NCBI RefSeq assembly: GCF_963514075.1
Contig: NC_083776.1
Location: forward strand, 18,822,415-18,886,414
Origin: Conger conger
Lineage: Eukaryota
DNA length: 64,000 nucleotides
Reading direction: 5' to 3'
Numbering within the stretch: position 1 is the first letter of the stretch; each line of letters begins with the position of its first letter. Below are positions 2,871-59,924 of the stretch, piece by piece. The translations under genes and the position numbers were made by a program. The notes under the pieces are model-generated. The model was not told the origin of the DNA. It saw only the letters and a list, made by a program, of their open reading frames with translations, and ran no database searches.

Positions 2871-3240
2871 GGGCGGCACGGATGGTGCAGTGGGTAGCAC
2901 TGCCGCCTCACAGCAAGGAGGTCCTGGGTTCGAATCCCCGTCAGCCGGGGCCTCTCTGTGTGGAGTTTGCATGTTCTCCCCGTGTTTGCGTGGGTTTCCT
3001 CCAGGTACTCCGGTTTCCTCCCACAGTCCAAAGACATGCAGGTTAGGCTGATTGGAGAGTCTAAATTGCCCGTAGGTATGAGTGTGTGAGTGAACGGTGT
3101 GTGTGCCCTGTGATGGACTGGCGACCTGTCCAGGGTGTATTCCTGCCTTTCGCCCAATGCATGCTGGGATAGGCTCCAGCCCCCCTGCGACCCTGTTCAG
3201 GATAAGCGGGTTAGGATAATGAATGAATGAATGAATGAAT
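2871..3240 (+). mobile_element. tRNA-derived SINE (family A). It has a conserved teleost core and the 3' tail '...caggataagcgggttaggataatgaatgaatg'.
   Basis: A tRNA-like head with A/B boxes ('gggcggcacggatggtgcagtgggtagcactgccgcctcacagcaagg...ggttcgaatcccc'), then the core 'gtttgcatgttctccccgtg...ggtttcctcccacagtccaaagacatgc'. A second near-identical copy is at 24761-25098. Confidence 0.85.
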
Positions 3241-6340: not shown

Positions 6341-7559
6341 TCTGCTTTGGTTTCAGAGCTAAGTGATTATTGGAATTATTATTTTTTTTTTAGGGGTACT
6401 AAACGGTTTTGCACATACTATATGTCATCACCTACCTACATCTGTACAAAGATGGCGGCCATGGTTCTCCTGGCCTCGGTTGCCCATGAAATCCGGCTTT
6501 GTCTTGGTTCTGCCAGCACTAATGCTGCAGTACAGTATGCTCTCTCTGTCCTGCAGTAATTATTAGAGAGGACAGTTATATGACAGCCTGCAAAATTACG
6601 CATCCAAACCTACAATTTATTATTAATGTCTTATACAGAGGTTTACTCTGCTTCTGAAATGAAATTCCGTTAGTTATGAGGAAGACACAGTGCTAGATGC
6701 GTCTATAGACTTCATATGCAAGCTGCTGTTTCAGTACACAGTTAGTAATTAATAAATAACAGACTCCAGCTGTACAGAAGTACTAATGGGCAATGTCAAA
6801 TTCATGTATGATATTAGCATGCTTCTGCATGAGAACACATGGCGGGCTATTTAGGAAGTTATTTTTGTTTATTAACACTTGGCTTGCTTTAACCTTGAGG
6901 TGGTATACCAGTGACTCACAGGAGGCTGAAATGACTTTATAAAGAGTACTATCAAACATGAAGCCTGCTTCTTCTCTCTGATTGACTGACTATACAAATG
7001 GAACAAAGCAGGTCAGTGTGGGTCCATAGCATGATACTAATATCAGTCCCATACTTTAGGTCAGTGGTATCCAATCCTGGTCTTGTAGAGCCACCAGAGG
7101 CTTTTGTTGCTACTCTGCACTTAATTAATCAATGAGAGCAGTTTATAATTATATACGTGGTTACCTGGGTCTCAACAGGGTGCTGATTTTAAGGTGAAAA
7201 GCATAAATAGCATAAATGTTCTCCAAGTTTTTCACGCAAAAGGTCACACTGCTTTTTCTTTCCCACTGAGCTGTGTTTCCTAACTCATTCTTCACACACT
7301 CAGACAAACGTTATTCATTACACAAAAGGTATTCTTTCTTTGCCCCGCGCAATATGAAAGCATGCCTGCCAGAGGAAATGTATTGGTCACAGCCATACAG
7401 TGAGTCAAATGTACTCTGACAGTTATGTAGATAGGTGGAGAAAACACTGCTAAAATATGTCTACCTCAAATTCTCCCCAGGGCCAGCTCCTGCCAGACAC
7501 ATTCCTGCCACACCGGTTTAGAAGTGTACTTAGGGATACTGACTCTGAAGAGCAGCAGT

Positions 7560-8280
7560 CTTCACACCAACCTCACACACACAGTGATGTATTACATACC
7601 CTCACGTCTGCTCCAAGCCCCCACCTCCACCTCCACCTCCCCACACACACACACATGCATGTACGCATGCACACACTCTCACACACACAACACACACGTA
7701 CACACACACACATGCATGCACGCACACAAACGCACGTACGCACAAACACATACACACATGCACATATGCGCACACACACACAACACACACATGTACTCAC
7801 ACACATGCATGCACGCACACACACACACCACACACACACACACATACACACGCCCACATACACACATGCACGTAAGCACGCATACACACACCGGTACACA
7901 CACACACACAAACCACACACAGACGGGCACACACGCACACACACACGCATGCACGCATACACAGACAAGCATGCATGCACGCACACACACACACCACACA
8001 TACACACACACAGGTACATATGCACGCACACACACACACACGTACACACACACCACACACACACACATGCATGCACGCACACACGCACATATTCACACAC
8101 ACACACACCACACATATACATACACACACATATACGTACGCCCACATACACACACGCACGTACGCACACACACACCAGTACATACACACACACAAACCAC
8201 ACACAGAAGTACACACGCACACACACACGCATGCACGCATGCACACACACCACACCACAGTGTGTGTGTGCGCATGATGT
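7560..8280. repeat. About 720 bp impure CA / CACGCA / CATGCA microsatellite tract.
   Basis: Direct reading. The 'ORFs' here are His/Thr or Cys/Val artefacts. Confidence 0.95.
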
Positions 8281-8538
8281 ATGTATGTATTGCCACCACA
8301 AAATAAAAGGAAAAAAACTGAAAATAATTTATCATTAAGCAAGGGCCTTGTAAAAGTCCTGTAAAAATAAGCCAATGAAAGCAATAAAAAATAAATATAT
8401 TGTCAGGATGATTTTCTGTGCATGCCTTTTAATTAAAACAACATTGTGTGAGGATGGGGGTTTTGGAACACAGTATGTACAATTACATACATACACTGGA
8501 ATTCCATGTTTCAAAAGCTCTCAAGATGAATAAATGCA

Positions 8539-8693
<155 letters not shown>

Positions 8694-9896
8694 ATGTGTG
8701 TGCATAATATGTGTACATATGCGCACATGTTCGTTGACTCACTAACGCTAGACTGACTGAATTTACCAGTTCACTCTCTGAAGCTAAAAATCTACTGTTC
8801 AGATAAAGATAAAAAACATCAGTATATAAAATTGGCTCCATCTATATTACAGTATCTCTGTAAAATTGTGTTGTAAATTATTTATTTGGCAATCCACTTT
8901 AAGACATTATTATAAATCTCACAAAGTGGATTAAATGTGTTGAAACAGTACAGTAATAAAAGAGAGTAGCAGTAATTATCAGTGCACATGTGCAGTATCT
9001 GTGTATACAGGCGCTGCTCAACACACTGTCTTACAAGATAATGTTTCTTTGAAATCATTGTTTCGGAAACAAATTCAAATGAGGGGAGCTATGACAAGGC
9101 CCCTCAGAACACAGAGAGTATTAATAATAATGAAATAAATACTCACATTAAATATTAATATCAATAAATTAGGACCCAGCTGTTAATTGCAGAAGACACT
9201 TAGATCGATCATAATAGAAAATAGCATATTTCAAAAAGAATTTAGAAAACAACTCAAGGCAACACCATCTATGAATATTATTGGAGTAATGCCCAGGATT
9301 AAATCAAAATTGTATGGAATGAATTTGTCTGTGTACTAGCAATTGTTGTTTGAGTTTGTGGCTTATAATGCAATGGTATCTCACAAAGTGCTATTATTCA
9401 ATCTTGCTAGAAGATACGTCATGCATTTAAGGTCTAGCAATGACAGAATTTTGGAGAAATCATTTATAAGATCTCTTTAGCAGCTAAACTGTGACATGGC
9501 TTAAAGAAAGTCGATGTGTCAATACCAAAAATGAAAGCATAGATATTTGTGACAAAACTGAACTAAATGTCATTTTGCTGCCACCTAGTGGACATGTATG
9601 ATATTTCACAGCCGGAAACAGCATTAGTTCTGATACTGAAGATATAGTAGAATACTGACCGTTGAAAACCCGTGATGTAGCACGTTATTGTGGTCGCAGT
9701 CACCACCACAAAACAAAGGGGGAAAGAGTTAAAATAATGAATCAAGTAATAGCCTTTAGCCTTGTACAATTAAATCAAAACAATAAAGCAATTCAAGCAA
9801 TAAAAAAAAAAATACTGTCTATCCCATTTTCTCAGCATGGCTTTTAATAAAAAAAAAAAAACGTGTGTGGAATGGGTTTTTGTAGCACAGTATGTG

Positions 9897-19739: not shown

Positions 19740-20080
19740 ACTTACAGCTTGTATGCTACCTCTTATGTGAACAGTGTGTGTGTTTGTATGCTACCTGTAT
19801 GTGACCTGTGTGTGTTTGAATGCTACCTGTATGTGACCTGTGTGCATGTTTGTACATTACCTGTATGTGACCTGTGCATGTGTGTGAGTGACCTGTTTGT
19901 GTGTTTGTATGTGACCTGTGTGTGTTTGTACTGTGTGTGTAAGTGACCTGTGTGTGTGTGAGCAAGCAGTGTGTGTGTGTGAGTGATCTGTGTGTTTGTA
20001 TGTGACCTGTGTGTGTGTATGTACATTACCTGTGTGTGTTTGTATGTGACCTGTGTGTGTGTGTGTGTGTGTGTGAGTGA
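19740..20080. repeat. About 19-20-bp minisatellite (gtgtgtgtttgtatgtgacct / gtgtgtgtgagtgacctgt), left block. The right block is 21960-22760 and the LINE lies between them.
   Basis: Direct reading. Confidence 0.9.
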
Positions 20081-21965
20081 CCTTCTTTGAAAAGAAGGTC
20101 GATGCTATTCGCAATTCCTTCTCCCAACCCTCCACCCCTGCTGACCCTCCTACCCTCCCCAACTCCCTAACCTCCTTTTCTCCCCTCTCTGATGCCGACA
20201 CACTGAAACTCCTTACTTCCCACCGCCCAACCACCTGTCCTCTTGACCCCATCCCCTCTCCCCTCCTACAATCTATATCTGATGACATTCTCCCTTTTCT
20301 CTCCTCTCTAATCAACACCTCCCTCTCTTCCGGCACCATGCCCTCTTCCCTGAAGAGGGCCAGAGTCACTCTCCTGCTCAAAAAACCTACTCTTGACCCC
20401 TCTGCCCTGAACAACTACCGGCCTGTCTCTCTTCTTCCCTTTCTGGCTAAAACTCTGGAACGGGCGGTCTGCTCCCAACTGCCCACTTATCTTCTCCAGA
20501 ACAATCTCCATGACCCCAACCAGTCTGGCTTCAAGAGTGGCCACTCCACTGAAACCGCCCTGCTCGCGGTCACTGAGGCACTCCACTCTGCTAAAGCAAA
20601 ATCCCTCTCCTCTGTCCTCATCTTCCTCGACCTGTCGGCCACCTTCGATACAGTCAACCGTGAGATTCTGCTCTCATCGCTGTCTGGGATGGGTGTCACA
20701 GGTTCTGCACTCGCTTGGTTTTCCTCCTACCTCTCTGGTCACTCCTACCAGGTGACTTGGAGGGGCTCAGTCTCCGACCCTCAACCCCTACGAACTGGAG
20801 TCCCGCAGGGCTCGGTTCTTGGGCCTCTCCTCTTCTCGCTATACACCATGTCTCTTGGTTCTGTTATCTCTTCCCACAGCTTTTCTTATCATTCCTACGC
20901 TGATGACACCCAACTCTTCATTTCCTTCCCCCCCGACACCCAAATCACCACACGGATCGCTGCCTGCTTGGCTGATATCTCTGCGTGGATGACTTCCCAC
21001 CACCTGAAGCTCAACCTTGCCAAAACTGAGCTTCTCTACATCCCTGCTAAGTCCTCTCCGTCAATCGACCTCTCATTGACTGTTGAGGACTTTGTAGTTT
21101 CCTCCTCCCATACGGCAAAGAATCTTGGGGTGACTCTTGATAACTGCCTCACCCTGGCTCCGCAAGTATCCTCCACTGCCAGAACCTGCAGGTTCTTTCT
21201 GTATAATATACGCCGTATCTGTCATCTCCTGACTGAGAAAGCCACCCAGCTCCTAGTCCAGGCGCTCGTCATTTCCCACCTGGATTACTGCAACTCCCTC
21301 CTAGCCGGTCTCCCAGCGTGTGCCATCAAGCCCCTCCAGCTGGTCCAGAATGCTGCAGCCCGCCTGATCACCAGTCAGCCCAGGTCGGCTCATGTCACCC
21401 CGCATCTCATTGGCCTCCACTGGCTTCCTATTGCCGCACGCATCCGTTTCAAGGCCCTAGTGTTGGCATTTCAGGCTGCTAAGGGGACTGCCCCACCTTA
21501 CATACAATCCCTGATCACTCCCTACTCCCCAGCTAGACCACTCCGGTCTGCCAGCTCTGGTCGCCTTACGGTTCCCTCTATACGTGCACCTGGCGGTCGA
21601 GCTGCACGTTCACGCCTGTTTTCCGTTCTGGTTCCTCAGTGGTGGAATGACTTGCCTACCACTGTCAGAACAGCAGAATCCCTCCCCCTATTTCGACGCA
21701 GACTCAAAACCCACCTTTTCAAACTCTACCTTAGTCCTCCCTCCTGGTTTCCCCTGCCCCTCCTTTCTGATATCCCTATCCTTGTCTAACCCCCCAAAAA
21801 AAATAAAAAAAAATAATGCACTTCTGATGACAACTATGTTTAGAACAGCATTTCCTGTGTATTTTGCTAGTTTCTGGATGTGATGCTCTGACTTATGGTA
21901 CAACCTATGCACTTGTAAGTCGCTTTGGATTAAAAGCGTCTGCCAAATGACTAAAATGTAAATGT
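20070..21965 (+). mobile_element. 5'-truncated non-LTR retrotransposon (L2/CR1-like LINE) with an intact 570-aa reverse-transcriptase ORF (20077-21789) and the 3' tail '...cttgtaagtcgctttggattaaaagcgtctgccaaatgactaaaatgtaaatgtaatg'.
   Basis: The ORF contains RT motifs (FLDLSATFDTVN..., GVPQGSVLGPLLFSLY..., YADDTQLF) and has no start codon or endonuclease. The element is inserted inside a GTGTGTGAGTGACCTGT minisatellite that continues on both sides. Confidence 0.85.
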
Positions 21966-24760: not shown

Positions 24761-25098
24761 GATGGTGGAGTGGGTAGCATTGCCGCCTCACAGCAAGGTC
24801 CTGGGTTCGAATCCCCGTCGGCCGGAGTTTGCATGTTCTCCCCGTGTTTGCGCGGGTTTCCTCCGGGTACTCCGGTTTCCTCCCACAGTCCAAAGAGCTT
24901 AGCTTAGGCTGATTGGAGAGTCTAAATTGCCCATAGGTATGAGTGTGTGAGTGAATGGTGTGTGTGCCCTGCGATGGACTGGTGACCTGTCCAGGGTGTA
25001 TTCCTGCCTTTCGCCCAATGTATGCTGGGATAGGCTCCAGCCCCCCTGCGACCCTATTCAGGATAAGCGGGTTAAGATAATGGATGGATGGATGGATG
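24761..25098 (+). mobile_element. tRNA-derived SINE (family A), located in parp4 intron.
   Basis: Same head, core and tail as 2871-3240. It ends in (GGAT)n. Confidence 0.85.
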
Positions 25099-33158: not shown

Positions 33159-34960
33159 GTAAGACTCCGGTTTGGCGCTGACGCGGTCCAGTAAGCTTGT
33201 TTCTAAACAAACACCCAGCCGCCAGATTCTGCAGTGGAAAACAGTCCCACCACAGGACACATCTGGAGTAAAATAAGTGGGGAATCTGTTGAACTGTGGC
33301 CTTCCAGCTCCAGGTCCATCAACCTTGGTTGATATTATTAGTAGCTTTACACATTACAATGCCAAGAGCCCAGTAGCCTGTTGCACCAGTATGATGTAAG
33401 TTTGATCGCAAGTTAGGGTGTAGGGTCCACACTAAATGTTATGCTGTAATTAGTTAGTTTAAAACTAAACTTTTAGTTTGGTTGCACATACTTTCACTAC
33501 ATCATTGGTCAACATTGTCGACCAAAACATTGTCGCATACAGTGACGTTTCTATATTCAGACCAATCATGCACTTTTAAAAAAATGAATCGCTATTCGCG
33601 TCTTGTGCCCTTCTAACTTCAAGTATATGTATGATGGTTAAATCATTCTATCTCAACTGCTGCCTTGTGCCTGTTGTCAAACAAGTATTCTAGCTGGTGA
33701 TTCATTTTGTGGATGTAATTGACTTGGTATGAAATAAAGTGTCTTTTATTAACTCTCATAATTTACGGAGTAATTTATTCCTGCACTCAAGAGATAAGGT
33801 TGGTTATTTTCTGTATCTCCACTTGCCGAAAACGAAAGCATGAGTGCACGTCAATCTCATCATACAAATTAAAGGGGTCATATATCGCGGATAATGTGCT
33901 GTTAGCTGATACCGGGCTGAATTTCCCCTCCAACAAGTTTCCCAATCTTTCAAATCGATGCGCTATGTCAACAGCTGATTTAGGAATTACTTTACACCTA
34001 GTAGGGAGTAGTCATTTGAAGTTGTATCTTAGTTCTATGTGATAACTAAATCAGCTAGTGCAACTGGTTTAAATTAAGTTATGGCATAATTCTACATTTA
34101 CGGTCACACTAGCCAACATTTGAACTCTTATACACGTTATACTGATGCAACAGGCTGCTGTTCCTCAAGGGCTGAGAACTGCTGGTTTTCCACCCTCCCT
34201 TTACATGGGAGTCTGCTGTGAAGACAGCAGCATGAATCGTTCAGTTAATTACCAGGGAGAAAAGAAAACCAGGGCCGGATTTGGATTTGAGTATCCCTGG
34301 TGACGAACATCGGAGTGAGCCGCACCGTCAGTGAAAGGAGGTGCACTGACACTCAATTATTCTATGAAAGGTTTCTCTACTCTATGAAAGGTCATCTTCT
34401 TCCTCCTCTGTTGCGTCTCCTGTATCCTGCTCTCCCTCCCAGCCACTGTAGGACAGAAAGTCCACATCCTCCTCTCTGAACAGCTTGAGAATGTCTGCGA
34501 AAGTAGCATTTGGACTCCCTGAATCCTGTGGTCAGAAAGAGAGAGATGCTATTGATTCAATTTGATTAATCGTCATTGCCTTCTAAAGCCCAGTCTCCAC
34601 CAAACAGCTGAGACGAGACAATGCTAGAGAAATCTTGTAAGGTCCATGTTTAAATCTCGAAAGAAATCTGCAAGTATGGACTATGCAGTCCACACCAAAG
34701 TGACGAGTAAATAAATGAACAACTGTTTCCATGACAACCCGAAACGTTACGTTAACTGTAACGTTCAATCAGTAATTGTTCTAAAACTCTAGGCTTAAGA
34801 CGTGACATGCTCAGTTTTAGAAACGCCAGCCAACATTGTAAAACTGGACAGTTCACATCAATAAGACCGGCTCATCTCAGCTGTGTGGTGGAGACTGGGC
34901 TTTACTCGACACTAGGAAAGGTTTTACTCTTCTGAACCTTGTGATGTTACTTCTCTGCAG

Positions 34961-35376: not shown

Positions 35377-35564
35377 TCCTCCCCACCAGTTGGGGGCAGC
35401 ACTGAGCTGTGGAGAGCCTTGCGCAGCCTGAGCCTGCTGCCCCCATCCCGAGGCGTCAGGAACCTGCTGCTGATTTCGGACGGCCATGTCCAGTGCGAGG
35501 CCCTCACCCTGCGGCTGGTACGGGAGGGCATCTGTCACACCCGCGTCTTCACCTGCGGTGTCAG
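35377..35564 (+). CDS. parp4: parp4 VWA exon. The acceptor is ambiguous: an alternative in-frame acceptor at 35337/35338 would add 13 codons.
   Basis: Acceptor 'ccattgttctcag|tcc' (or 'gtggtgcag|tac'), donor 'gtgtcag|gtaagg'. '...SSPPVGGSTELWRALRSLSLLPPSRGVRNLLLISDGHVQCEALTLRLVREGICHTRVFTCGV' matches human 'ATPTMGNTDFWKTLRYLSLLYPARGSRNILLVSDGHLQDESLTLQLVKRSRPHTRLFACGI'. Confidence 0.8.
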
Positions 35565-40455: not shown

Positions 40456-40553
40456 CCCAACTGCCAATCGGCACATGCTAAGAGCCCTGGCCCAGGCAGG
40501 AGGCGGAGCCTACAAATTCTTTGACACCAAGACCAAACACACCTGGGTGGAAA
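40456..40553 (+). CDS. parp4: parp4 VWA exon.
   Basis: Acceptor 'tttattttcag|', donor 'gaaaag|gttaga'. 'SPTANRHMLRALAQAGGGAYKFFDTKTKHTWVEK' matches human 'STANRHVLRILSQCGAGVFEYFNAKSKHSWRKQ'. Confidence 0.9.
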
Positions 40554-40984
40554 AGGTTAGACTCTTCATACAAAAATACTGACAGTGAAACTGCTGCTGT
40601 CAAACACTTGGAATTGAGTAAACAATAAGCTCCAACCTAAGCACACGTTATGGTGCCTAAGAAGAATTGGGCCTGCATGTAGGATTTAGACTTAGGTGAA
40701 ATAGGTGGTATATCAAGATCGTCCTACCGATCACAGATTAAGTAATACAGATTCTGTGGTCTCTAGGCTGACAGATGTCATATCTGACAGATTCAAAGCT
40801 ATGTGCTTCACTCTGGTTTAATTGGTCTGGTTCTTTGTCACAAACCAAAAACAGCATGATCATGTCAGTGCAAGAGGCCATCCCCCTTTTCGATAACTGC
40901 ATGGAAAGCAGAAATATGCATGGAATTCACCCGATAAACAATAAACGTGCTGGTGGCAGTCAAGCGGTGCCTATTTTTCGGCAG

Positions 40985-41158
40985 GTCTCGTCACAAACCA
41001 AGCGCATGGCTGGCCCCGGCTGCAGCTCGGTGTCCGTGAAGTGGCAGCAGTTTAACCCCCCCGGTGCACCCCCACCCCTTCAGGCCCCCGCCCAACTGAG
41101 CGCGCTCTTCAGTGATTGCCCCACCCTCGTCTATGGCTTTGTGCCCCACTGCACCCAG
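40985..41158 (+). CDS. parp4: parp4 exon.
   Basis: Acceptor 'tttcggcag|', donor 'acccag|gtaacc'. 'VSSQTKRMAGPGCSSVSVKWQQFNPPGAPPPLQAPAQLSALFSDCPTLVYGFVPHCTQ' matches human 'IEDQMTRLCSPSCHSVSVKWQQLNPDAPEALQAPAQVPSLFLNDRLLVYGFIPHCTQ'. Confidence 0.95.
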
Positions 41159-41551: not shown

Positions 41552-41632
41552 GCCACGCTGCAGGGCAAGCTGAGTGAGCAGGAGCTGGAGTCGGTGGTGT
41601 CCACCTCTGAGCTGCAGAAGACCAAGGGCATG
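41552..41632 (+). CDS. parp4: parp4 exon.
   Basis: Acceptor 'cctccaccaag|', donor 'ggcatg|gtaaga'. 'ATLQGKLSEQELESVVSTSELQKTKGM' matches human 'ATLCALIQEKEFRTMVSTTELQKTTGTM'. Confidence 0.85.
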
Positions 41633-42467: not shown

Positions 42468-42547
42468 CTCCTGCACAAGTTGACTGCTAGAGCGGTCATC
42501 AGAGACTACGAGGACGGCAGCCTGCATGCGGACGAGGCGGAGCATGA
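42468..42547 (+). CDS. parp4: parp4 exon.
   Basis: Acceptor 'ctattctccag|', donor 'catgag|gtgggt'. 'LLHKLTARAVIRDYEDGSLHADEAEHE' matches human 'IHKLAARALIRDYEDGILHENETSHE'. Confidence 0.9.
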
Positions 42548-42960
42548 GGTGGGTGCCAGGGGTCCGTGCGTTTTAGGTCCGCTGGGTTGGGAATTTAGCG
42601 AGGACACCCACTCTTTGCAAAGAGTGTCATGGGATCTTTAATGACCAGTGTCAGGACCTTGGTTTAACATCTCATCTGAAAGACGGCATCTCCTATAGCA
42701 CAGTGTCCCCATCACTGCACTGGGGCATTGCGGGTAATTTGACTATTGGGAAGATCGCCCCGTATTGGCCCACTGACATCACTAACAGCAGCAACTTAGT
42801 TTTCACAAGAGGTCTCCCATCCAAGTACTAACCAAGCCCACACCCGCTTAGCTTCAGCCATTTGGTAGGAGCAGGGTGCATGATGGTAAATCTGTAAATC
42901 TGCCAGACCGGCCAGGTTCTCTGGGCCTGTGCTCATTCTGCGGCTGCTTCATGTTCCCAG

Positions 42961-43056
42961 GGAAAGAAGGAGGAGCTGAAGTCTTTTGTCATCAAGCTGA
43001 GCAAGGAGTACTCTATCGTGACCCAGTACACCAGCTTCGTGGCCATAGAGGAGAGG
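42961..43056 (+). CDS. parp4: parp4 exon.
   Basis: Acceptor 'catgttcccag|', donor 'gagagg|gtaggt'. 'GKKEELKSFVIKLSKEYSIVTQYTSFVAIEER' matches human 'KKQTLKSLIIKLSKENSLITQFTSFVAVEKR'. Confidence 0.9.
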
Positions 43057-43931
43057 GTAGGTGTGGGAGCTATAGCAAATTAATAAATTAATATGCATAA
43101 CAACTGCATAAGAAAAACATATGCTTAAGAAATGCGTAACGTATGCATAGCAAATGAATAATAAATACATATTCATAATATGCTTTTATTGTGTTGCTGA
43201 CACAAGCTTATCAACATAGATGGCATAGGTAGCCTCTTAACTCATGAGACTAAATTAGATTTAATCATCCACAGCAAAACATTCATGCAAGTCTTTTTAT
43301 CTTTACTGTACTGGACTCGGGTGAATAAACCCAGTCTCATGAGTTCGCATAGTAGGAACTATAAAAACCACATTATCACTGTTACCACAGCTACGATGTG
43401 CTGTGCGCAATGCTTAATTGCGCTCTGTCGTACGTTTTACTTAGACTGTAGGGTTCTCTCTCTGGGTGATTCAGTCAGCTGCATGGCCAGCCAGCAAAAT
43501 GAAATGAAATTCACTGCTTTTACAAATCAAAGATGGGACATTGGTTGTGATGTGTTCAGAGGTAATCAGTATATTTGGATTACATATGAACATAACACAA
43601 TATTTTTGACTGGTAGTTGTTTCTTAGTTGGCTCTTGGGCTTGGAAAGTTTGGAAATTCTTCTGGAGAGATTAAGATGATGCAATCAAAATATAGTGGGT
43701 AGCACCATTGCCTCACAGCATGAAGGTCCTGGGTTCACCTCCAGTACTCCTGGCTTGCCTTGACTGAGGCAGTGGAGTTGGTGCCCGGGAACTGCACTGT
43801 GGCTGCCCACGGCTCCTAAGTAACTAGGATTGGCCAAATGCAGAGGACGTTTAGAAAGCATTGATTGTCTTAGAAGGCAATGACAATGAATCTAACTGAA
43901 TCAAATGGCATCTCTCTCTTTTTGACCACAG

Positions 43932-44102
43932 GACTCAGGGAGTCCAGAAGCTGGTTTCACAGACATTCCCAAGTTGCTCGCAGAGGAGGATGTGGACGTT
44001 CTGTCCTACATGGGCTGGGAGGGAGAGCAGGACACAGGAGAAGCAATGGAGGAGGAAGAATATACGCCAATGCGTCGCATGGTGGTTATCAGAGGCTTAA
44101 AG
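43932..44102 (+). CDS. parp4: parp4 exon (acidic linker). This is the parent of the downstream duplicated mini-exons.
   Basis: Acceptor 'tttgaccacag|', donor 'cttaaag|gtaatgcacac'. 'DSGSPEAGFTDIPKLLAEEDVDVLSYMGWEGEQDTGEAMEEEEYTPMRRMVVIRGLK' matches human 'DENESPFPDIPKVSELIAKEDVDFLPYMSWQGE'. Confidence 0.85.
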
Positions 44103-44438
44103 GTAATGCACACTTACCCTGAGAATACACAAATTTACGCACACTCACACCCTCCAAAATATTAGTGCCCATGATAAAGGCTTATTTTTCAGAACTCAAT
44201 CATAAAGTGCTAAGTTGCCTTCATAATGTTTCATGAGATAGGTGAACAACAGGGAGACAATCGTTGACGATTTCTCCAACAGAAACTTTCAAGATCCATA
44301 CATGTGAACTGTCTGGAGATGGAGATGTCGATTGCAATCTTGTAGTTTTGTCGCCATTTAACCATTTCTAGGCATTTTCACAATAATGCGGTAAAAACCA
44401 TGTGATGCATATGGGACTTTTTGCTCATCTTTATCAAG

Positions 44439-44549
44439 GGTATTGACACAGACACTGGCTCGGAGAGTGACCGGGATACGGGAGACACAACAAAGGATGA
44501 AGAAGATGAGACATCATATGACATGGCTGGGGTTATGTGTGGTTTAATG
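44439..44549 (+). CDS. parp4: Candidate extra parp4 cassette exon. It is a duplicate of the 3' part of the preceding exon (111 nt, phase 0 to 0) and encodes GIDTDTGSESDRDTGDTTKDEEDETSYDMAGVMCGLM.
   Basis: Acceptor 'ctttttgctcatctttatcaag|ggt' with a good pyrimidine tract; the donor 'ttaatg|gtaatgcacac' is identical to the parent exon donor. The ORF is open and the frame is compatible with the flanking phase-0 exons. Homology is to the parent exon only, since human PARP4 has no such exon, so usage is unproven. Confidence 0.4.
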
Positions 44550-44682
44550 GTAATGCACACCTGCCCAGAGAATACACAAACTCACACACACTCGCGCCCT
44601 CCAAAATTATTGGTGCCCACGATAAAGGTAATCAAAGTAAGGTTGTATAAACTAAACAACATAGGTAATAGGTTATATTCCA

Positions 44683-44995
44683 TCCATGCATTATCTAACC
44701 TGCTTATTCCTGATCAGGGACACTGGGGGTGCATTGGGCGAGAGGCAGGAAAACACCCTGGACAGACCGCCAATCCATCGCAGGGCACACACACCATTCA
44801 CTCACACACTCACACCTAGGGGAAATTTAGACTCTCCGATTAACCTAACCTGCGTGTCATTGGACTGTGGGAGGAAACCCACAGGGACATGGAGAAAACA
44901 TGCAAACTCCACACAGAAAGGCCCAGGCCGGGATCCAAACCCGGGGCCTTCTTGCAGTGAGGTGACCGTGTTAATCTACTGTGCCACCCTAAGGT
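44683..44995 (-). mobile_element. SINE family A-related copy (minus orientation) inside the parp4 tandem-duplicated segment.
   Basis: The reverse complement shows the same core and a tail 'ggataagcaggttagataatgcatggatgg'. The copy at 45546-45858 is nearly identical, so the SINE inserted before the segment was duplicated. Confidence 0.75.
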
Positions 44996-45301
44996 TATAT
45001 TGTATCCTCAAAAAATATATAATTACTCAGAGAAAACTTGGTATATGAAATATTGGCTGTTTTCAGTACTGTTTCAGAACTCAATCGTAAAACTGCTAAG
45101 TTGTCCTTATAATATTTGATGAGATAGGTGAACAACAGGGGGAAAATCGTTGATGATTTCTCCAACAGAAACTTTCAAGATCTGGAGATGTCGATTGCAA
45201 TCCCGTAGTTTTGTGGGCATTCAACCATTTCTAGGCATTTTCACAATCATGCGTTAAAAACCATGTGATGCATTTGGGACTTTTTGCTCATCTTTATCAA
45301 G

Positions 45302-45412
45302 GGTATTGACACAGACACTGGCTCGGAGAGCGACCGGGATACGGGAGACACAACAGAGGATGAAGAAGATGAGACATCATATGACATGGCTGGGGTTATG
45401 TGTGGTTTAATG
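45302..45412 (+). CDS. parp4: Second copy of the candidate parp4 cassette mini-exon (111 nt, one K-to-E difference from the first copy).
   Basis: The acceptor 'ctttttgctcatctttatcaag|ggt' and donor 'ttaatg|gtaatgtacac' match the first copy. The ORF is open and intact (GIDTDTGSESDRDTGDTTEDEEDETSYDMAGVMCGLM). Confidence 0.35.
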
Positions 45413-45545
45413 GTAATGTACACCTGCCCAGAGAATACACAAACTCACACACACTCACGCCCTCCAAAATGATTGGTGCCCATGATAAAGGTAATCAAAG
45501 TAAGGTTGTATAAACTAAACAACATAGGTAATAGGTTATATTCCA

Positions 45546-45858
45546 TCCATGCATTATCTAACCTGCTTATTCCTGATCAGGGACACTGGGGGTGCATTGG
45601 GCGAGAGGCAGGAAAACACCCTGGACAGACCGCCAATCCATCGCAGGGCACACACACCATTCACTCACACACTCACACCTAGGGGAAATTTAGACTCTCC
45701 GATTAACCTAACCTGCGTGTCATTGGACTGTGGGAGGAAACCCACGCGGACACGGAGAAAACGTGCAAACTCCACACAGAAAGGCCCAGGCCGGGATCCA
45801 AACCCGGGGCCTTCTTGCAGTGAGGTGACCGTGTTAATCTACTGTGCTGCCCTAAGGT
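45546..45858 (-). mobile_element. SINE family A-related copy (a duplicate of 44683-44995).
   Basis: Near-identical to the preceding copy, including its flanks. Confidence 0.75.
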
Positions 45859-46196
45859 TATATTGTATGCTTGGTATATGAAATATTGGCTGTTTTCAGT
45901 ACTGTTTCAGAACTCAATCGTAAAACTGCGTAAAAAAAAGTTGATGTCAATTGCAATCCTGTAGTTTAGTGGGCATTTAACCATTTCTAGGCATTTTCAG
46001 AATCATGCAGAAAAATCTATGTAACTTTTTGCTCATCTTTATCGAAGGTATACACAGTATACGATTATTGGGTGATGGGCCTCGATGGGCTGAATGGGCC
46101 AAATGCAGAGGAAATTTAGAAGGCATTGATTGTCTTAGAAGGCAGTGACAATTAATCTAATTGAATAAAATGGCATCTCTCTCTTTCTGGCCACAG

Positions 46197-47227
46197 GACG
46201 CAGAAGTATGTTCCTGGGCCAGGGAGGTCGCTCTTGACAGTGGCGTCTCACATCACTCAGCTGGCCATTCGCCACTAGCCAGACGCTCACACCTGCAACC
46301 ACCTGAATTACAGGGAGAAGTTGAATGTGACTCAGTACCCATTTTGGAAAAACGACCCAGAACTTCTTCTTTTGCTCCTCCTCTTCCACTTTCCGCTGTT
46401 CCTCATCCTCCTCCACATTATGCTCCTGCTCCTTGTCCTACTCTACATTATGCTGTTTCTCCTTTTGCTCCTCCTGCTGCTGCTGCTCCTCCTGCTGCTC
46501 CTCCTCCTGCTGCTTTGTCTCTTTCATCTGCTGCTTATAATCCTGTGAAACTACTGTTGTGTCAGCACGATATGCAGGACATCCCTGATGGTTCACCTCC
46601 CTGCTCTCTCATGGAGAAGCTTCCTGTGATCAGCTATTCTCCTCTTGCTCCTTCTGCTCCTCTACCTTATGCTGCTGCTGTTGTTCCTCCTCTTCCATCT
46701 CCTAAATTCCAAGTCAGGCGGGTAAAGAAAAAATTAGCCATCACTGCTGCTTCTCCTTCTTCTCCTGTTTCTCCTTATTCTCCTTCTTCATGTTTCTCTC
46801 GCAGCCCTCTCCTCCGTGAAAGGTCTGCTATGAGTCATTCTTTTCCTGCCCCTCCCCCTCCTCACCCAGCCACATTAGCCAATGAAATACCACAGAAATA
46901 CCACAGCATTCACCTCGAAGCTCCACCCTCTGACTCAACCTTTTCCAGCCTCTCAAATCAAATAGGCTCTTCAAGGCATTTAGGGCCCATGTGTGGCCCG
47001 GAAATACAAAATGAGTTATTTGGTGCTACTGGGTTTTCTTTTCATACAGCAACAGAATCTTTTTCTAAAGGCTTGGTGATTTTGGATGCACCTGGGCAGG
47101 TGCCTCCATTGCAGTTTGACAGAAAAGCAGGTCGTCCCCGTCAAGGGTCCTTATTCTCTACATCACCTGCCAATATAGATCCTAAGGCTATCCAAATGAG
47201 AGAAGAAATCACAACATTTTTTCCCAG
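46197..47227 (+). CDS. parp4: Large parp4 exon encoding the Pro/Ser/Ala-rich low-complexity linker.
   Basis: Acceptor 'ttctggccacag|gac', donor 'tcccag|gtaatt'. The 343-codon ORF (proline-rich '...PPLPLSAVPHPPPHYAPAPCPTLHYAVSPFAPPAAAAPP...') corresponds to the single large Pro-rich exon of human PARP4 (residues about 1250-1560). The phase is consistent with its neighbours. Confidence 0.85.
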
Positions 47228-47556: not shown

Positions 47557-47659
47557 GACGGTTACTGGGAATGCTCTGAGAAGCTGGGCTCCTTTCTTGG
47601 TCTGGATTTAACCTTCTTTGCCAATGTCTTCCTGAAAGAAAAGGGAATCGCCTCTCTGG
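47557..47659 (+). CDS. parp4: parp4 C-terminal region exon.
   Basis: Acceptor 'gttgttgattag|', donor 'tctctgg|gtaaga'. 'DGYWECSEKLGSFLGLDLTFFANVFLKEKGIASL' matches human 'DGFWKLTPELGLILNLNTNGLHSFLKQKGIQSL'. Confidence 0.9.
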
Positions 47660-48604: not shown

Positions 48605-48737
48605 GCGCGAGAGCTCGTGCGGACATTTTGAAGCTGGTGGCCACGCTGCTGGTTCTCCAGATGCTGAGGCTCATGGGACTAGCTGAGGGGAAGATGCTGA
48701 AGAGCCTTCTCCGCCTGAAGGACAGCAGCACTCCCAC
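48605..48737 (+). CDS. parp4: parp4 C-terminal region exon.
   Basis: Acceptor 'ctccttccttgcag|', donor 'cccac|gtatgt'. 'GARARADILKLVATLLVLQMLRLMGLAEGKMLKSLLRLKDSSTPT' matches human 'GVKGRECLLDLIATMLVLQFIRTRLEKEGIVFKSLMKMDDPSISRN'. Confidence 0.9.
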
Positions 48738-53770: not shown

Positions 53771-53876
53771 GGGGGAAGCGGCCAACGGAGCCGAAAGGTT
53801 TGAACCTGGAGACAGCGAGCAAGACGAGGAGGATGTATACGAGGTGGAGAGTATTATTGACATGCGTATGGGGGAG
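53600..53876 (+). CDS. mphosph8: mphosph8 exon 1. The 5'UTR start is approximate; the CDS runs 53769-53876 (MGEAANGAERFEPGDSEQDEEDVYEVESIIDMRMGE).
   Basis: ATG at 53769 in Kozak-like context 'caaaATGg'. The donor is 'ggggag|gtgagt'. The peptide matches the human MPP8 chromodomain N-half 'EDVFEVEKILDMKTEGG'. There is an inverted CCAAT box 'gattggctg' at about 53548. Confidence 0.8.
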
Positions 53877-55447: not shown

Positions 55448-56622
55448 ACCTGTGCTGTAACCTATTCCCCCAACCCCACAAAATCCAAGCGTTCACTGGA
55501 GTGAAACCACTGCCTCTGCTGGGTACTGAGCAGTGAGACTGGGACCTTCAGTCATCACAAACATCAGAATGAATCGCCCTTTATAGTTGTGGTGATAATT
55601 GAGTGCACAGCTTCCAATTAATCAACACAAGGCAGCACTTTGTGTTGTAGTTTGAGAGTTGAGCCATATAGATGCCTGCTGCAAAATGCCACAGCCTTGG
55701 CAGTTGTAAGGTTGTAGAAAGAGTGCATTACGAGTGTGCTGTAGCAGCACTGCTTAGTTATTTTGGCCCAGGATGCCAAAATGTGACCTGGATGGTCTCT
55801 GCAAAAACAGCAAAAGAGCAGTGTGTCTGGACATGCCTGACAGAAGAGGCTGACCGATTGGCTATCCAGTGATGGCGGTACATAAAAACAAGGTTGTTAC
55901 TATGCTGCTGCAACAGTCCCTTCCTTGTGTGATGTCACGGTTGCATGTTGGAAAATGCTAGGCTATGTCCTGGATGAGCAGGGTGCATTTCTCACAAATG
56001 CTGTGACCTTGGGCTGCTACAACACTGCTCATCAGTGTGTGATTAATCTCTCCACAGTCTAATATTTAATTCTGACGTGGCTGTGGTGACTGTGCCATCA
56101 TAACTGTCTGTAGCGCTGCCCAGGAGAGGAGGCTACCTGTGTGCGTGGTATCTCACCTTCCCCAGGTACCGACAGACTGTCCGGTTTGGGCCACGGACTG
56201 CGCAGGGAAAACGAGGGGCAGCGAGTGCCCACGAGGAGGCCTTGCCTCGCGCCCGCAAAGAGACAGAGGCCATTTCAGCGATCAGATGGGCCTGTGATCA
56301 TTACCACACATTCAAATGGAACTCAGAAGTGTGAAAGGAGTTCTCTGAGAGACGGACTGAAGGGGGAAGGGGGTTCTTTGAAGTTAGACACGGGATATAT
56401 GATCTTTAGGACACTGACAGTGGTGCACCATAATGCTGTGGAGTAGGCCCTGTTGGGTTCAGAAGGGAAAATCCACCCTTCTCTTGTAATAAGGAGGCAA
56501 TCCAATCAGGAAAACTCTTGACACTAGATGTAATTATGAGAGACTATTTTTGCAGTACACCCGCTGACAGTCATCACTGTACTAAAAAAAGCATCCTATG
56601 TACCCTGTAAGAGGGACTGTGT

Positions 56623-56735
<113 letters not shown>

Positions 56736-58783
56736 AGAGTTTCAAGGTCAAAAACCTCATTAAGTACAAACCTGTTTTTTGCAATCAAGGAGCTGGAACT
56801 TCCTGGCCTGTGACATAACATCTGCCTCCCACGTTTACTCAGTCATTCATATAAAAGATAGACATAATGCTGATGAGAACGCATAATTATAGAACATTAT
56901 AATTGAAGGGGGAAAAAAAGCAATATAATAAGAATAATAATAAGAACAACAACATTAACTCATCAGCACACAAGAGCAAGCAATGTTTTGGATACGTCTT
57001 GGTGATGGCTTAATTATTAATGCCGTGTTTGCATTGCCATGGTGATGTTTGCAGTACTGCACTACGCCCTTCTTTGTCTTCAGTGCCAAGAGCGATCTTC
57101 TATTCATCACTGACAACACTTTGGTTTCACATTGAACATGGAACAACCAGTTTGGTAGAGAAAGCAGTGCTGGTTCTTGTACATAGCTTGACACTGGAAG
57201 CAGCACTCGTTCGTGTAACGTCGCTGCAGTCGCAGAGAAGAGGGATGCGGTGTGCTGATGGGATAGGAGGTCAACAGCTAGCCTAAACGGAGCTGGGGGC
57301 TCTGGACTTCTACTCCCAGCATGCCGAGCTGGACCTCTAGTCCCACTGTCATCAGTTTACTGAGTAGTGTGTGAGTGTGAGTGTGAGATTAGATCGTTTC
57401 ACATGCATTCTCTCAAAGCACTAAGTGCATAACCTGTGCTTTAAAATGTGTTTGTGGCATTGGCCATGTGTGCCTTACTGAAAGTTCATGTTGGTGTAGG
57501 GCTCTAGGCAAACTTTTTTGTTTGTTTGTGTGTGTGTTATATGGTGTGCATGTGTGTGTAAGCCCTGCTGCCCTGTGCCAGAGAAGCTCAGTTGTCTCGG
57601 CGCCTCAGGGGGAGGAGCCGGCACTGTAGCCCCAGACAGGAAGTCCTGGCAGGCTGCCACACCCAATCAGAGCTCGGCTGTCTGTCTACTGGGCCCTGCG
57701 AGGATCCAGGGGCCTCCTTAGACTACAAGAGGGGGAGGGGAGGGGCACAGTCTGGGAGGGGCTCTTTCATATGGAGGGTGGTGGTGTACAGGAAGTTGGC
57801 ATGTTGGATCACCTGCCTACTGGTGTTCTTGCCAGGGCGCCACCTAGAGGCCTGAGCGAGTGATTCTTATTACCGCTCGATGACTGCGGCCCATTGTTAG
57901 CTCTGTACCATGTGAAGCCAACACTGCCTGAGTGCCAGTCTAGTCAGGGCTACTCCAGCAGCTGCCTGCAGACAAAGAGAACTGACAGTACTGCTGGCGG
58001 TTTCTGTGCAACATGGCAAATATCAGAATAGTTTCTGAAATTTCCCTGGTACAAACCCCCCGGGCCGGGTGTAGACGCGGGAAGGCTTTAATCACAGCTC
58101 GCAGGCTCTGTTAAAAGGACGTCGCAAAAATCAAAGGCCACACCAGCATCTTTTGAACTCTTTGTTTCTGCGTTGCGTAATCGCAGCGTGCGACTTCGCG
58201 TTCATAGGATTCTCAGTAAACCGCCATTGAAACGGGAAAGACCGGAGAAAGGCTTTCAAGTTGCTCTCATTATTCTTTCAAGAGCTGGTTATTTTGATTT
58301 CCATTTCGACTGACGGCGGACTCATTTTCACGTTCAACTAAATACAACCTTCTACACTGGGTGTCTTTATATAGAAGTTGCAGAACATATACAGTATTTA
58401 TCCAGACAGAATATTGTCCCGTCAGGGGTACAGTACATAGCTACACAAAGAATAATACATGTTACACACATTCTTTGACACATTAATTTAATTACTCAAG
58501 CAAATGCCCATCAGATAAAGTGCCCGTGTATAAGGGTTTATTGTACTGCTCTGTTTTGACCAAATAAAGAACAAAGAAAAGAGAAAAGCCTTGGAGTGCC
58601 TCCACTTTCTAATGTAATTTTTTTTTTAAAGAAAAGGAAAACGGTCATAATCCATATAAACAATGTGAAATTATATTGTTGTATCAAGCCACTCACTGTT
58701 AGCCACTCACTGTTTGAATGCACTTATGGAGTTAATAAAGATTTTTATTTTTTATTACCTTTGACACATTTGTCCCACGTGTA

Positions 58784-59774: not shown

Positions 59775-59924
59775 GGTGAGATCCTGTACCGCGTGCGGTG
59801 GAAGAACTACACCGCCGAGGAGGACACGTGGGAGCCGGAGGCCAACCTGGAGGACTGCATGGAGGTGCTCCTGGCCTTCAGGAAGAAGGTGACGGAGAGC
59901 AAGGCCATGAAAGAGGTGCCTGCG
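59775..59924 (+). CDS. mphosph8: mphosph8 exon 2 (second half of the chromodomain).
   Basis: Acceptor '(c)12ag|ggt', donor 'cctgcg|gtgagt'. 'GEILYRVRWKNYTAEEDTWEPEANLEDCMEVLLAFRKKVTESKAMKEVPA' matches human MPP8 'GKVLYKVRWKGYTSDDDTWEPEIHLEDCKEVLLEFRKKIAENKAKAVRKDIQ'. Confidence 0.9.

Follow-up and report, generated by a model that had tools for sequence, protein, structure and literature searches.

An intron of a fish vault PARP gene holds two short, open units that resemble the end of the exon preceding them, and this raises the question of whether such units are exons that lengthen the protein or young copies that selection does not maintain. We analysed the 64,000-nt window of the Conger conger genome in which they lie (GCF_963514075.1, NC_083776.1, 18,822,415-18,886,414, forward strand); all coordinates are positions in this window, features lie on its + strand unless stated otherwise, and '/' marks a splice junction. 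The interpretation that we favour, though by no means firmly, is that a local duplication specific to the lineage took place in several steps in the parp4 intron between the parent exon E_a (..EDVDVLSYMGW and an acidic tail) and the next large exon, E_b, the copies being young, unconstrained proto-exons.

The gene, the parent exon and the array

On its domain content and homology the gene is parp4 (vault PARP), as a previous sequence-only reading of this DNA had proposed. The + strand exons encode, in this order, the Pfam domains BRCT (1e-8), PARP (3e-12), VIT (1e-38) and VWA_3 (1e-11), the spliced sequence aligns to residues 1049-1216 of human PARP4 with E=1.3e-58 (PDB 11jf_P, 9bw6, 9bw7) and the C-terminal exons of the gene match the fish fragment P0001; a search with the spliced query returned neither proteins nor ORFs from the same species. 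The human alignment stops at residue 1216, at ..YMGWEGEQD, just where the duplicated tail starts, and human PARP4, for which a single exon had been stated here, is without an alignable counterpart of the copies.

E_a (43932-44102) has 171 nt, or 57 codons, in phase 0-0, bounded by AG at 43930-31 and GT at 44103-04. Conservation with human PARP4 (residues ~1183-1216) covers its 5' part (..FTDIPKLLAEEDVDVLSYMGW); its acidic 3' tail (~44005-44102), the source of the mini-exon copies, is not conserved. Upstream of the exon is its acceptor module, P (43829-43931), which is the 3' end of the intron with a pyrimidine run of 13 nt and CAG; on its 5' side P starts within the tail of a SINE-like stretch (43690-43828). 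A copy of P together with the first 7 nt of E_a, termed P' (46094-46203, acceptor AG at 46195-96), now provides the acceptor and first codons of E_b. The earlier suggestion that these codons are paralogous to those of the parent is borne out by the blastn alignment of 43829-43938 with 46094-46203 (90% identity over 110 nt, E=2e-37). E_b itself (46197-47099) is large and Pro-rich and corresponds to the hypervariable exon 30 of human PARP4 (PMC4038475), with an ORF that is open as far as 47228 and a putative phase 0 donor at 47099 (CAG/GTGCCT). Every junction considered here, of E_a, both mini-exons and E_b, is in phase 0. In mammals the largest PARP4 exon (human exon 30) is disordered, variable in length and positively selected (Daugherty et al. 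2014, PMC4038475), and its length and sequence differ greatly across vertebrates (PMC4038475).

Between these two exons the last ~98 nt of E_a, the GTAATG donor and the downstream intron have been copied in tandem, twice, just as first described. The repeat family lies at 44084, 44531 and 45394, with spacings of 447 and 863, and blastn aligns 44013-44180 with 44457-44628 (76%, E=2e-25) and with 45320-45491 (77%, E=4e-28), and 44187-45096 with 45072-45929 (90.7% over 911 columns, E=0). In the first unit E_a is followed by A0 (44103-44186), with the donor and the 84 nt at the start of the intron, and by B0 (44187-44438), an intron segment whose 3' end is the acceptor-like ctttttgctcatctttatcaag (44417-44438). 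Mini-exon copy 1 (44439-44549) comes next, with its own donor and intron copy A1 (44550-44637) and the acceptor-side segment B1 (45072-45301), then mini-exon copy 2 (45302-45412), A2 (45413-45500) and a third, decayed acceptor-side segment, B2 (45905-46058). B2 has internal deletions and contains a partial repeat of the intron end and acceptor (45943-46058; decayed acceptor copy at 46026-46047). It ends in ..ctttatcgaag/gtatacacag with no exon-derived sequence after it, and this is the 3' end of the array.

Units 2 and 3, but not unit 1, each contain a SINE on the - strand (44680-44991 and 45543-45854), at the same site and with the same target-site duplication, AGGTTATATT (44670-44679 and 44992-45001; 45533-45542 and 45855-45864); a further ~130 nt, within 44638-45071 in unit 2, is likewise missing from unit 1. 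The two SINE copies differ by 6 mismatches in 310 nt, mostly at CpG sites, and related family members lie at 2895-3229 and 24846-25092 (74-79% identity). ARAGORN finds no tRNA in 43000-47000, and the tRNA-like head of the SINE is a reading of the sequence by eye only. The proposal that the SINE was acquired before the next duplication holds in the sense that it is older than the last homogenising or duplicating event.

With SINEs inside units 2 and 3 and just 5' of P, and with the 5' edge of P and P' resembling a SINE tail (..aaatgcagagga..), one might suppose that the exon-like units are exonised transposable-element sequence and not exon duplicates. We regard this as extremely improbable: the mini-exons align to the tail of E_a and to unique intron and not to the intronic antisense SINEs, the start (Asp-Ser) and 5' part of E_a are conserved in Characodon and human, so that P and E_a are ancestral gene sequence, and blastn found no copies of the unit in the 64-kb window beyond the three described.

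A mosaic of divergence and the history of the array

The array has not diverged evenly. Between units 2 and 3 the mini-exon, A segment, SINE and post-SINE sequence differ by 1.9-2.1%, B0 and B1 by 7.9%, B1 and B2 by 12-14%, A0 and either of its copies by 17-18%, and the tail of E_a and the mini-exons by 34-35%. The mismatch rates of B0/B1 and of the mini-exon-SINE block differ (Fisher p=2e-4), and a change-point is placed at 44412, with 18/225 mismatches to its left (8.0%) and 13/685 to its right (1.9%; LRT 16.2). Furthermore, 45037-45096 and 45870-45929 are identical over 60 nt, of which 35 nt lie before B1 and ~25 nt within it. A discrete tract is thus found with much higher identity than the adjacent homologous sequence, which is how gene conversion or concerted evolution is recognised.

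A history of only two steps is ruled out by the contrast between 7.9% in B0/B1 and 1.9-2.1% in the mini-exon-SINE block and by the change-point at 44412. The sequence-only reading, in which two successive duplications formed the whole history, must accordingly be extended: as read from this one genome, in which conversion is not separable from other multi-step scenarios, no fewer than three events are required, one of them a recent homogenisation of ~0.7 kb. We infer unequal crossing-over and gene conversion as the mechanisms. First, a segment consisting of ~98 nt from the 3' end of E_a, the donor and ~340 nt of intron would have been copied in tandem; the junction would have fallen inside the intron and would therefore have placed a pre-existing pyrimidine tract and AG (..ctttatcaag/) 13 nt 5' of the exon-derived piece. 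Unequal crossing-over between B segments probably then expanded the array to three units, one unit would have gained the SINE, and gene conversion between units 2 and 3 would later have homogenised the ~0.7-kb block of acceptor, mini-exon, donor and SINE. The acceptor module of E_a would also have been copied to a place 5' of E_b, as P', and, in inverted orientation beside a MITE, to another 9.4 kb upstream.

The ~2% separating units 2 and 3 over 685 nt could also be taken to mean that the third unit is an assembly artefact, in which two haplotypes of a two-unit locus were set in tandem. This we consider highly improbable. The window has no runs of N, the block is far below the typical size of a haplotypic duplication, and the B segments are 8-14% apart, unit 3 having its own decayed B with private deletions, which indicates paralogy and not allelism.

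The inverted copy, Einv (34394-34586, - strand), lies in an upstream parp4 intron and comprises the last 62 nt of P and the first 132 nt of E_a, with 86.6% identity to the parent over 194 nt (blastn, E=8e-62). It abuts a MITE-like element (34584-34904, not assigned to a strand) with 34-nt terminal inverted repeats that are 94% complementary, and direct repeats, CTATGAAAGGT.., lie on either side of the pair at 34358-34392 and 34912-34933. Einv retains ancestral states common to the mini-exons.

Splice sites and reading frame of the copies

Each mini-exon has 111 nt and 37 open codons in phase 0-0, of which the first 13 nt come from the intron and the last 98 nt from the tail of E_a, so that the conserved 5' half of E_a is lacking. 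The peptides quoted previously (GIDTDTGSESDRDTGDTTKDEEDETSYDMAGVMCGLM in copy 1, ..TTEDEED.. in copy 2) are reproduced by translation, with GIDTDTGSESDR.. as a segment of the predicted product, and the phase and parental GTAATG donor ascribed to both copies are likewise present. The copies had been said to differ by one nonsynonymous change; this change exists (44493 A/G, Lys/Glu), but it is accompanied by a silent one (44468 T/C).

Both copies have an ATG/GTAATG donor and an AAG/G acceptor with ctttttgctcatctttatcaag directly 5' of it. The U1 duplexes of the mini-exon donors reach -5.1/-6.4 kcal/mol, where the parent donor has -6.6 and donors throughout the gene range from -2.1 to -11.6, and 16/22 nt before the acceptor are pyrimidines; an AAG/G acceptor is also found at the homology-inferred exon at 41552. 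With these features both copies qualify formally as splice-competent units, symmetric and in frame. The acceptor had been described as newly formed. It is instead a cryptic site that was already in the ancestral intron, because a third copy of it, 5' of E_b, precedes sequence that is not exon-derived. The mini-exons are also purine-rich, and motifs of the GAAGAAGA type, a class that promotes exon recognition, were counted in the sequence.

A competing CAG acceptor lies 13 nt 3' of the mini-exon acceptor (ending at 44451 in copy 1), and its use would shift the frame. Acceptors preferentially end in CAG, AAG being weak, the only yUnAy motifs nearby (CTCAT and TTTAT) are at distances of 25 and 19 nt to the CAG and of just 12 and 6 nt to the AAG, and the +1 frame reaches a TAA inside the copy. 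The units might on this account be poison exons or splicing noise, in which the downstream CAG defines exons of 98 nt (44452-44549 or 45315-45412) that lead through the frame shift and TAA to nonsense-mediated decay. We judge this improbable: the first AG after a pyrimidine tract is the one usually selected, GGTATTGACA intervenes and leaves the CAG with a poor tract (11/22), and a scan for branch motifs that fails in 7/11 accepted exons of this gene deserves little weight.

Selection, splicing and comparison with known systems

The copies had been noted to stay open in spite of substantial divergence. That they are open, at 34-35% from the parent, is correct; as a sign of function it fails, since the chance of the frame staying open is 0.30-0.48 at 17-34 substitutions, the +1 frame is also open and ends in TAA at the copy end, and Ka/Ks is ~0.95. 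Under neutrality, frame, length and donor would all be retained with a probability of ~0.1, for a feature that was chosen for these very properties. The dN/dS comparison of copies and parent proposed at the outset gives NG86 Ka/Ks values of 0.92-0.96, indicating no constraint, with one silent and one replacement change between the copies themselves. The copies differ at 2/111 sites (1.8%) and their flanks at 11/517 (2.1%; Fisher p=1.0), a comparison of low power that involves 2 sites only, and differences fall at codon positions 10/9/12, without codon periodicity. Conservation above the flanks, Ka/Ks below 1 and an excess at third positions, by which purifying selection on a functional duplicated exon would be recognised, are thus not found. 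No homologous peptide was found in about 15 billion predicted proteins. The single match in 1.84 billion representatives, P0016 (E=7e-4), was rejected as a low-complexity chance match without similarity at the DNA level. In these low-power tests no constraint is seen, and the evolution of the copies cannot be told apart from neutral drift.

One comparison does depart from this pattern. The exon-derived part of the copies has 34/97 mismatches to the parent and the adjoining intron 15/84 (p=0.012), making the former about twice as diverged. The excess implies that simple neutral decay of a duplicate of a single age would be insufficient, and that either patchy conversion of the intron or accelerated change of the coding tail is needed; it is not specific to replacement sites, because dS, at 0.57, also exceeds the intron divergence. 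In the 52 nt that can be polarised through Einv, the parent shows 6 changes, the mini-exon lineage 7-9 and Einv 0.

These data bear on whether the copies are cassette or constitutive exons, maintained by selection, which lengthen the acidic linker by 37 or 74 residues before the hypervariable region, with the divergence of the exon part being adaptive. Such a role seems unlikely to us, though it deserves serious consideration. Its case consists of the symmetric 111-nt units with the parental frame open, the intact GTAATG donor and adequate pyrimidine tract, an AAG/G acceptor apparently used by another exon of the gene, and an adjacent exon known for positive selection and variable length (PMC4038475). 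Four observations, moreover, count against the proto-exon interpretation: the twofold excess of divergence in the exon part; the changes in the parent and mini-exon lineages with none in the inverted pseudo-copy, which could mean adaptive change in expressed sequences; the combination of intact donor, length in multiples of 3, a 3-nt indel and open frame, all traits of a used cassette exon; and the purine-rich motifs of the GAAGAAGA type. Set against a selected exon are conservation no better than in the flanking intron and SINE, the near-neutral Ka/Ks, the high dS, the lack of periodicity, the chance of ~0.1 for neutral retention, the failure to find a homologous peptide and a conversion tract, spanning a SINE as well, that accounts for the identity between the copies. 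The bolder proposal that the copies are expressed, lineage-specific cassette exons, extending a fast-evolving disordered region of vault PARP in acidic steps of 37 residues and kept alike by concerted evolution, with the excess divergence of the exon, parent and copies included, being adaptive, we think distinctly unlikely; were it true, the gain of exon copies, besides substitutions in the large exon, would diversify a proposed host-pathogen interface.

For the favoured proto-exons, the most likely outcome is inclusion that is at most alternative or low-level, by which an insertion-tolerant linker would gain 37 or 74 residues, acidic and probably disordered, and most likely selection does not maintain the copies, as far as tests of low power can tell.

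If the copies are spliced in, PARP4 isoforms would carry one or two extra acidic modules beside the proposed pathogen-recognition surface (PMC4038475), and the birth of an exon through partial exon duplication and recruitment of a cryptic acceptor would have been caught early. If they are not, the locus would represent routine intronic exon-copy debris with concerted evolution of a mini-array, and it would serve mainly to caution annotators, because ab initio predictors would readily include open, symmetric units.

Work on tandem exon duplication as a source of cassette or mutually exclusive exons (Letunic, Copley & Bork 2002 as summarised in PMC9013439; Ivanov & Pervouchine 2022) puts the share of animal genes with tandemly duplicated exons at ~10%, describes unannotated intronic exon copies as common and reports that ~2% of human exonic nucleotides have a homolog of >=80% identity within the parent gene. 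The present locus resembles such tandem exon duplications in that a fragment was copied within its own gene, on the same strand and with donor and frame kept, giving adjacent homologous copies with AG..GT boundaries, open frames and compatible length. It differs in that only the 3' ~98 nt were copied and a cryptic intronic acceptor was recruited. Functional cases of this kind are defined by their expression and conservation. Until RNA shows that the copies are used, it is, judged by its sequence, an ordinary young exon duplication. Unlike the equal, interchangeable members of a mutually exclusive cluster, the copies have 111 nt and the parent 171 nt, so that substitution of one of N is unlikely. 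The hypervariable region of PARP4 (PMC4038475) is a feature of this very gene and protein region, the large Pro-rich exon being the one immediately 3' of the copies; there, however, substitutions and length changes occur inside one mammalian exon, whereas here exon-like units, known from sequence alone, were gained in the preceding intron of a fish. As in Alu/SINE exonisation, the candidate exon is young and lineage-specific, has weak or cryptic splice sites and sits in a SINE-rich intron, but it derives from a coding exon and unique intron and not from a SINE. Finally, the mosaic of 1.9%, 8%, 12-14% and 17-18%, the sharp change-point, the shared SINE site and the 60-nt identical tract resemble the concerted evolution of tandem repeats, in an array that is very small by the usual standard, with three units of ~0.45-0.86 kb each.

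Anatomy of the array

The parent exon of the array, E_a (43932-44102), is a 171-nt parp4 exon of phase 0-0, bounded by ..gaccacag/ and /gtaatg, where '/' marks a splice boundary. Its tail, together with the donor and the intron that follows, recurs as a family of three at 44084, 44531 and 45394, with the spacings of 447 and 863 described in the sequence-only reading. The two exon-like copies of this tail, the mini-exons (copy 1, 44439-44549; copy 2, 45302-45412), do encode the 37-residue open peptides which that reading quoted and do carry the parental donor, with GTAATG after each and ctttttgctcatctttatcaag before each. A 300-nt repeat pair (44307-44606 vs 45170-45469) is 94% identical and, since self-blastn of the repeat pairs returns E-values from 2e-25 to 0, the repeats are not due to chance. 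As a structural finding, the array is genuine and well resolved.

The order of the array is E_a tail, A0, B0, x, mini-exon 1, A1, SINE insert, B1, x, mini-exon 2, A2, SINE insert, B2, x', unique sequence, P' and E_b. Here, A is the 84-88 nt of intron after the donor, B is an acceptor-side intron segment of ~250 nt, x is GGTATTGACACAG and P' is a copy of the E_a acceptor module lying at E_b, the large Pro-rich exon from 46197. The SINE is antisense and common to units 2 and 3 (44680-44991 and 45543-45854), both copies being flanked by an identical target-site duplication, AGGTTATATT; a further ~130 nt is present in both these units and missing from unit 1. The SINE family is also represented at 2895-3229 and 24846-25092, and ARAGORN found no tRNA-like head on the SINEs.

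The acceptor of the copies had been described as newly formed. The third B copy (45905-46047) shows instead that a cryptic intron site was recruited: in the unit alignment it closes with ..ctttatcgaag, after which come gtatacacag and non-exon sequence, and because no exon sequence follows it, both the acceptor and the 13 nt that open each mini-exon are ancestral intron. The duplication junction lies after ..ACACAG. Exonisation of a transposable element is ruled out as a class for the mini-exons. The array is a tandem exon duplication, which is a common process, but differs from the classic mutually exclusive exons in that the copying was confined to the exon tail and gave units shorter than the parent.

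Divergence and duplication history

The E_a tail differs from the two mini-exons at 34/97 and 33/97 positions (34-35%), A0 from A1 and A2 at 15/84 and 14/84 (17-18%), B0 from B1 at 18/229 (7.9%) and B1 from B2 at 12-14%. Between units 2 and 3 there are 2/111 mismatches in the mini-exon, 4/130 in A and the pre-SINE sequence, 6/310 in the SINE and 1/77 post-SINE. One difference between the mini-exons had been reported; we find two, at 44468 (T/C, silent) and 44493 (A/G, Lys/Glu), and since copy 2 shares its G at 44493 with both the parent exon and the inverted copy, the Lys of copy 1 is the derived state.

Divergence within the array is heterogeneous (Fisher p=2e-4). In the alignment of 44187-45096 with 45072-45929 a change-point at 44412 separates 18 mismatches in 225 nt on the left from 13 in 685 nt on the right (LRT 16.2), and 60 identical nt (45037-45096 = 45870-45929) form the closing end of the high-identity block. 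The history proposed from the sequence, a 447-bp step and then, after the SINE had arrived, one of 863 bp, predicts equal divergence for B0/B1 and for the block from mini-exon to SINE, and is ruled out by the 8% vs 2% observed, as is a history of one unequal B0-B2 crossover with no conversion afterwards. The most economical account, whose mechanisms are inferred from one genome, would have three steps: an old tandem duplication, an increase to three units, probably through unequal crossing-over among the B segments, and a recent gene-conversion tract of ~0.7 kb that would have homogenised the acceptor, mini-exon, donor and SINE of units 2 and 3.

Adjoining this is a second disparity, in that the exon-derived part is ~2x more diverged from its parent than is the adjoining intron (p=0.012 vs A alone). 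Over the 52 nt that can be polarised through Einv, an inverted partial copy of E_a at 34394-34586, private changes number 6 in the parent, 7-9 in the mini-exon lineage and 0 in Einv. Since dS is raised along with dN, the simpler account of the excess is patchy conversion of intron segments, and the age of the first duplication would then be that of the exon part; alternatively, the acidic tail, as an expressed and fast-evolving sequence, may itself have changed at an accelerated rate. At the exon boundary itself (44064-44102 vs 44508-44549), divergence shifts abruptly: by manual count in the alignment ~41% of the last 39 nt of the tail differ, whereas intron sequence just past the common GTAATG differs at 18%. 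The usual contrast is the opposite one; intron conversion and rapid evolution of the coding tail are the candidate causes here.

Constraint and splice competence of the copies

The near-identity of the two copies is not a sign of purifying selection, as their flanks are equally similar (exon 1.8% vs flanking intron and SINE 2.1%, p=1.0), and is explained by the conversion tract. Purifying selection, a defining feature of functional duplicated exons, was also sought in the comparison of copies with parent that the sequence-only reading had proposed, and was not found: NG86 gives a dN of 0.52-0.54, a dS of 0.57 and a Ka/Ks of 0.92-0.96, with 10, 9 and 12 differences at codon positions 1, 2 and 3. 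The copies had further been said to have diverged substantially while staying open, and the divergence and the 37 open codons both stand, but the openness is no evidence of function, as the parental frame remains open in simulation with probability 0.48 to 0.30 when substitutions rise from 17 to 34, and the +1 frame of the copies is likewise open until a terminal TAA. The joint neutral probability of frame, length and donor is ~0.1, a figure in which a length divisible by 3 counts as a one-in-three event and GT retention as likely, for a feature that was picked for these very traits. On such comparisons the neutrality of the copies cannot be rejected and their functional reading is unproven. 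We lean, by a little, towards the copies being young, unconstrained proto-exons, included at most partially. Cassette exons maintained by selection, which the open frames and parental donors would suit and the Ka/Ks values would not, seem rather unlikely.

The acceptor of the copies has 16/22 pyrimidines, equal to those of E_a and E_b, in shorter runs, and its triplet, AAG/G, is weak. The parp4 exon at 41552 uses the same weak triplet (..ccctccaccaag/GCC, ..ccaccaag/GCC); its acceptor is placed by homology to Characodon PARP4 (HCTE/ATLLG vs HCTQ/ATLQG) and the exon looks constitutive. The donor of the copies, ATG/GTAATG, agrees with 6/9 consensus positions, and the predicted U1 duplexes, at -5.1 and -6.4 kcal/mol, compare with -6.6 in the parent and a gene-wide range of -2.1 to -11.6. 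The copies are 65% purine and contain GAAGAAGA-type motifs; such purine-rich motifs favour exon definition. Because all four units (E_a, the two copies and E_b) are of phase 0, the frame is kept under any combination of inclusion, and with introns that would measure 336, 752 and 784 nt there is no steric bar to the inclusion of both copies. Each copy, if included, would add 37 residues with a net charge of -10 or -12, 9 Ser/Thr and a short hydrophobic motif at the end; the predicted junction peptides are GIDTDTGSESDR and DEEDETSYDMAGVMCGLM.

A competing CAG ends 13 nt downstream of the acceptor, and an exon starting there (44452 or 45315) would be 98 nt long, shift the frame and meet a TAA inside the copy. 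Simple branch-point motifs are better placed for this CAG, but the scan fails on 7/11 accepted exons and was set aside as uninformative. That the copies serve as poison exons through such a frameshifted form is improbable, and artefact or other explanations take up the small remainder.

Searches beyond the window returned little. The spliced E_a, two mini-exons and E_b, compared with 5.8 billion proteins, matched only distant PARP4 fragments (covering exons upstream of E_a and its 5' part), the whole E_b ORF had no match in a protein search and exact DNA patterns from the mini-exon and E_a were not found in metagenome contigs. Using phmmer, the genomic ORF over mini-exon 1 gave one match among 1.84 billion representatives (P0016, E=7e-4), rejected as a GAT-rich, low-complexity chance match, its contig (L001, an ENA metagenome scaffold) having no nucleotide similarity to the window.

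Further copies of the parent exon and the gene setting

The acceptor of E_b had been called paralogous to that of E_a, and the two align at 90% (43829-43938 vs 46094-46203). P' (46094-46203) comprises the 103-nt acceptor module, P (43829-43931), and the first 7 nt of E_a, and now provides the acceptor of E_b, an exon whose 3' splice site was apparently exchanged or acquired in the same burst of rearrangement. Einv (34394-34586, minus strand) holds the last 62 nt of the module and the first 132 nt of E_a, antisense within an upstream parp4 intron. It adjoins a MITE-like element whose terminal inverted repeats are 34 nt long (34584-34617 / 34871-34904, 94% complementary), and direct repeats, CTATGAAAGGT.., bracket the pair at 34358-34392 (twice) and 34912-34933. 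This arrangement suggests a joint insertion of Einv and the element, whether through transposon-associated capture or as filler DNA during break repair. Over 68 nt, private changes number 3 in P, 4 in P' and 4 in the module part of Einv, which makes the three roughly equidistant. We infer that copying ran from P to P', because the Asp-Ser start of E_a is kept in Characodon and human PARP4 can be aligned over the 5' half of the exon. An origin of the module in a transposable element was rejected, the start of E_a being conserved in other fish and human and Einv having P contiguous with exon. P' and Einv, as two further copies, mark a rearrangement-prone spot.

The PARP4-type gene runs on the + strand from ~13 kb to 49.3 kb, its translated exons matching the BRCT, PARP catalytic, VIT and VWA domains (Pfam). 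Homology to two fish PARP4 fragments places + strand exons at 35377-35564, 40456-40555, 40985-41158, 41552-41632, 42468-42548, 42961-43056, E_a, E_b, 47557-47659, 48605-48737 and 49059 onward. The spliced sequence around the array aligns to human PARP4 (PDB 11jf_P, 9bw6, 9bw7) over residues 1049-1216 (E=1.3e-58) and, since this alignment ends at ..SYMGWEGEQD, the start of the duplicated part, what was amplified is the acidic tail of E_a, which is not conserved. Pfam has no family for E_a plus the copies, nor for E_b. The long, Pro-rich E_b is the counterpart of the largest PARP4 exon (human exon 30), which encodes a disordered region of ~360 residues, has been positively selected in primates as well as bats and varies strongly in sequence and length among vertebrates (Daugherty et al., PMC4038475). 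The location beside this hypervariable region gives the array some biological interest.

The E_b ORF reaches 47228, where the obvious donor, CAG/GTAATT (47227/47228), is out of phase with the exon at 47557 (DGYWE..); a phase-0 donor at 47099, CAG/GTGCCT, fits and makes E_b 301 codons, and there may be a small extra exon between 47099 and 47557. A long LINE-type reverse transcriptase ORF (20077-21786, +; Pfam RVT_1 E=4.5e-34) lies within a parp4 intron. Downstream on the same strand is a gene with a chromodomain over two exons (53826-53876 and 59775-59888, +; Pfam Chromo E=1.8e-16), which may be the mphosph8 ortholog, given that MPHOSPH8 lies beside PARP4 in human 13q12. Long CA/TG, TC/GA and related microsatellite tracts are abundant (500-2850, 7400-8800, 56600-56800 and elsewhere) and give rise, in the six-frame listing, to long but spurious ORFs of the 'THTH', 'CVCV' and 'RERE' kinds.
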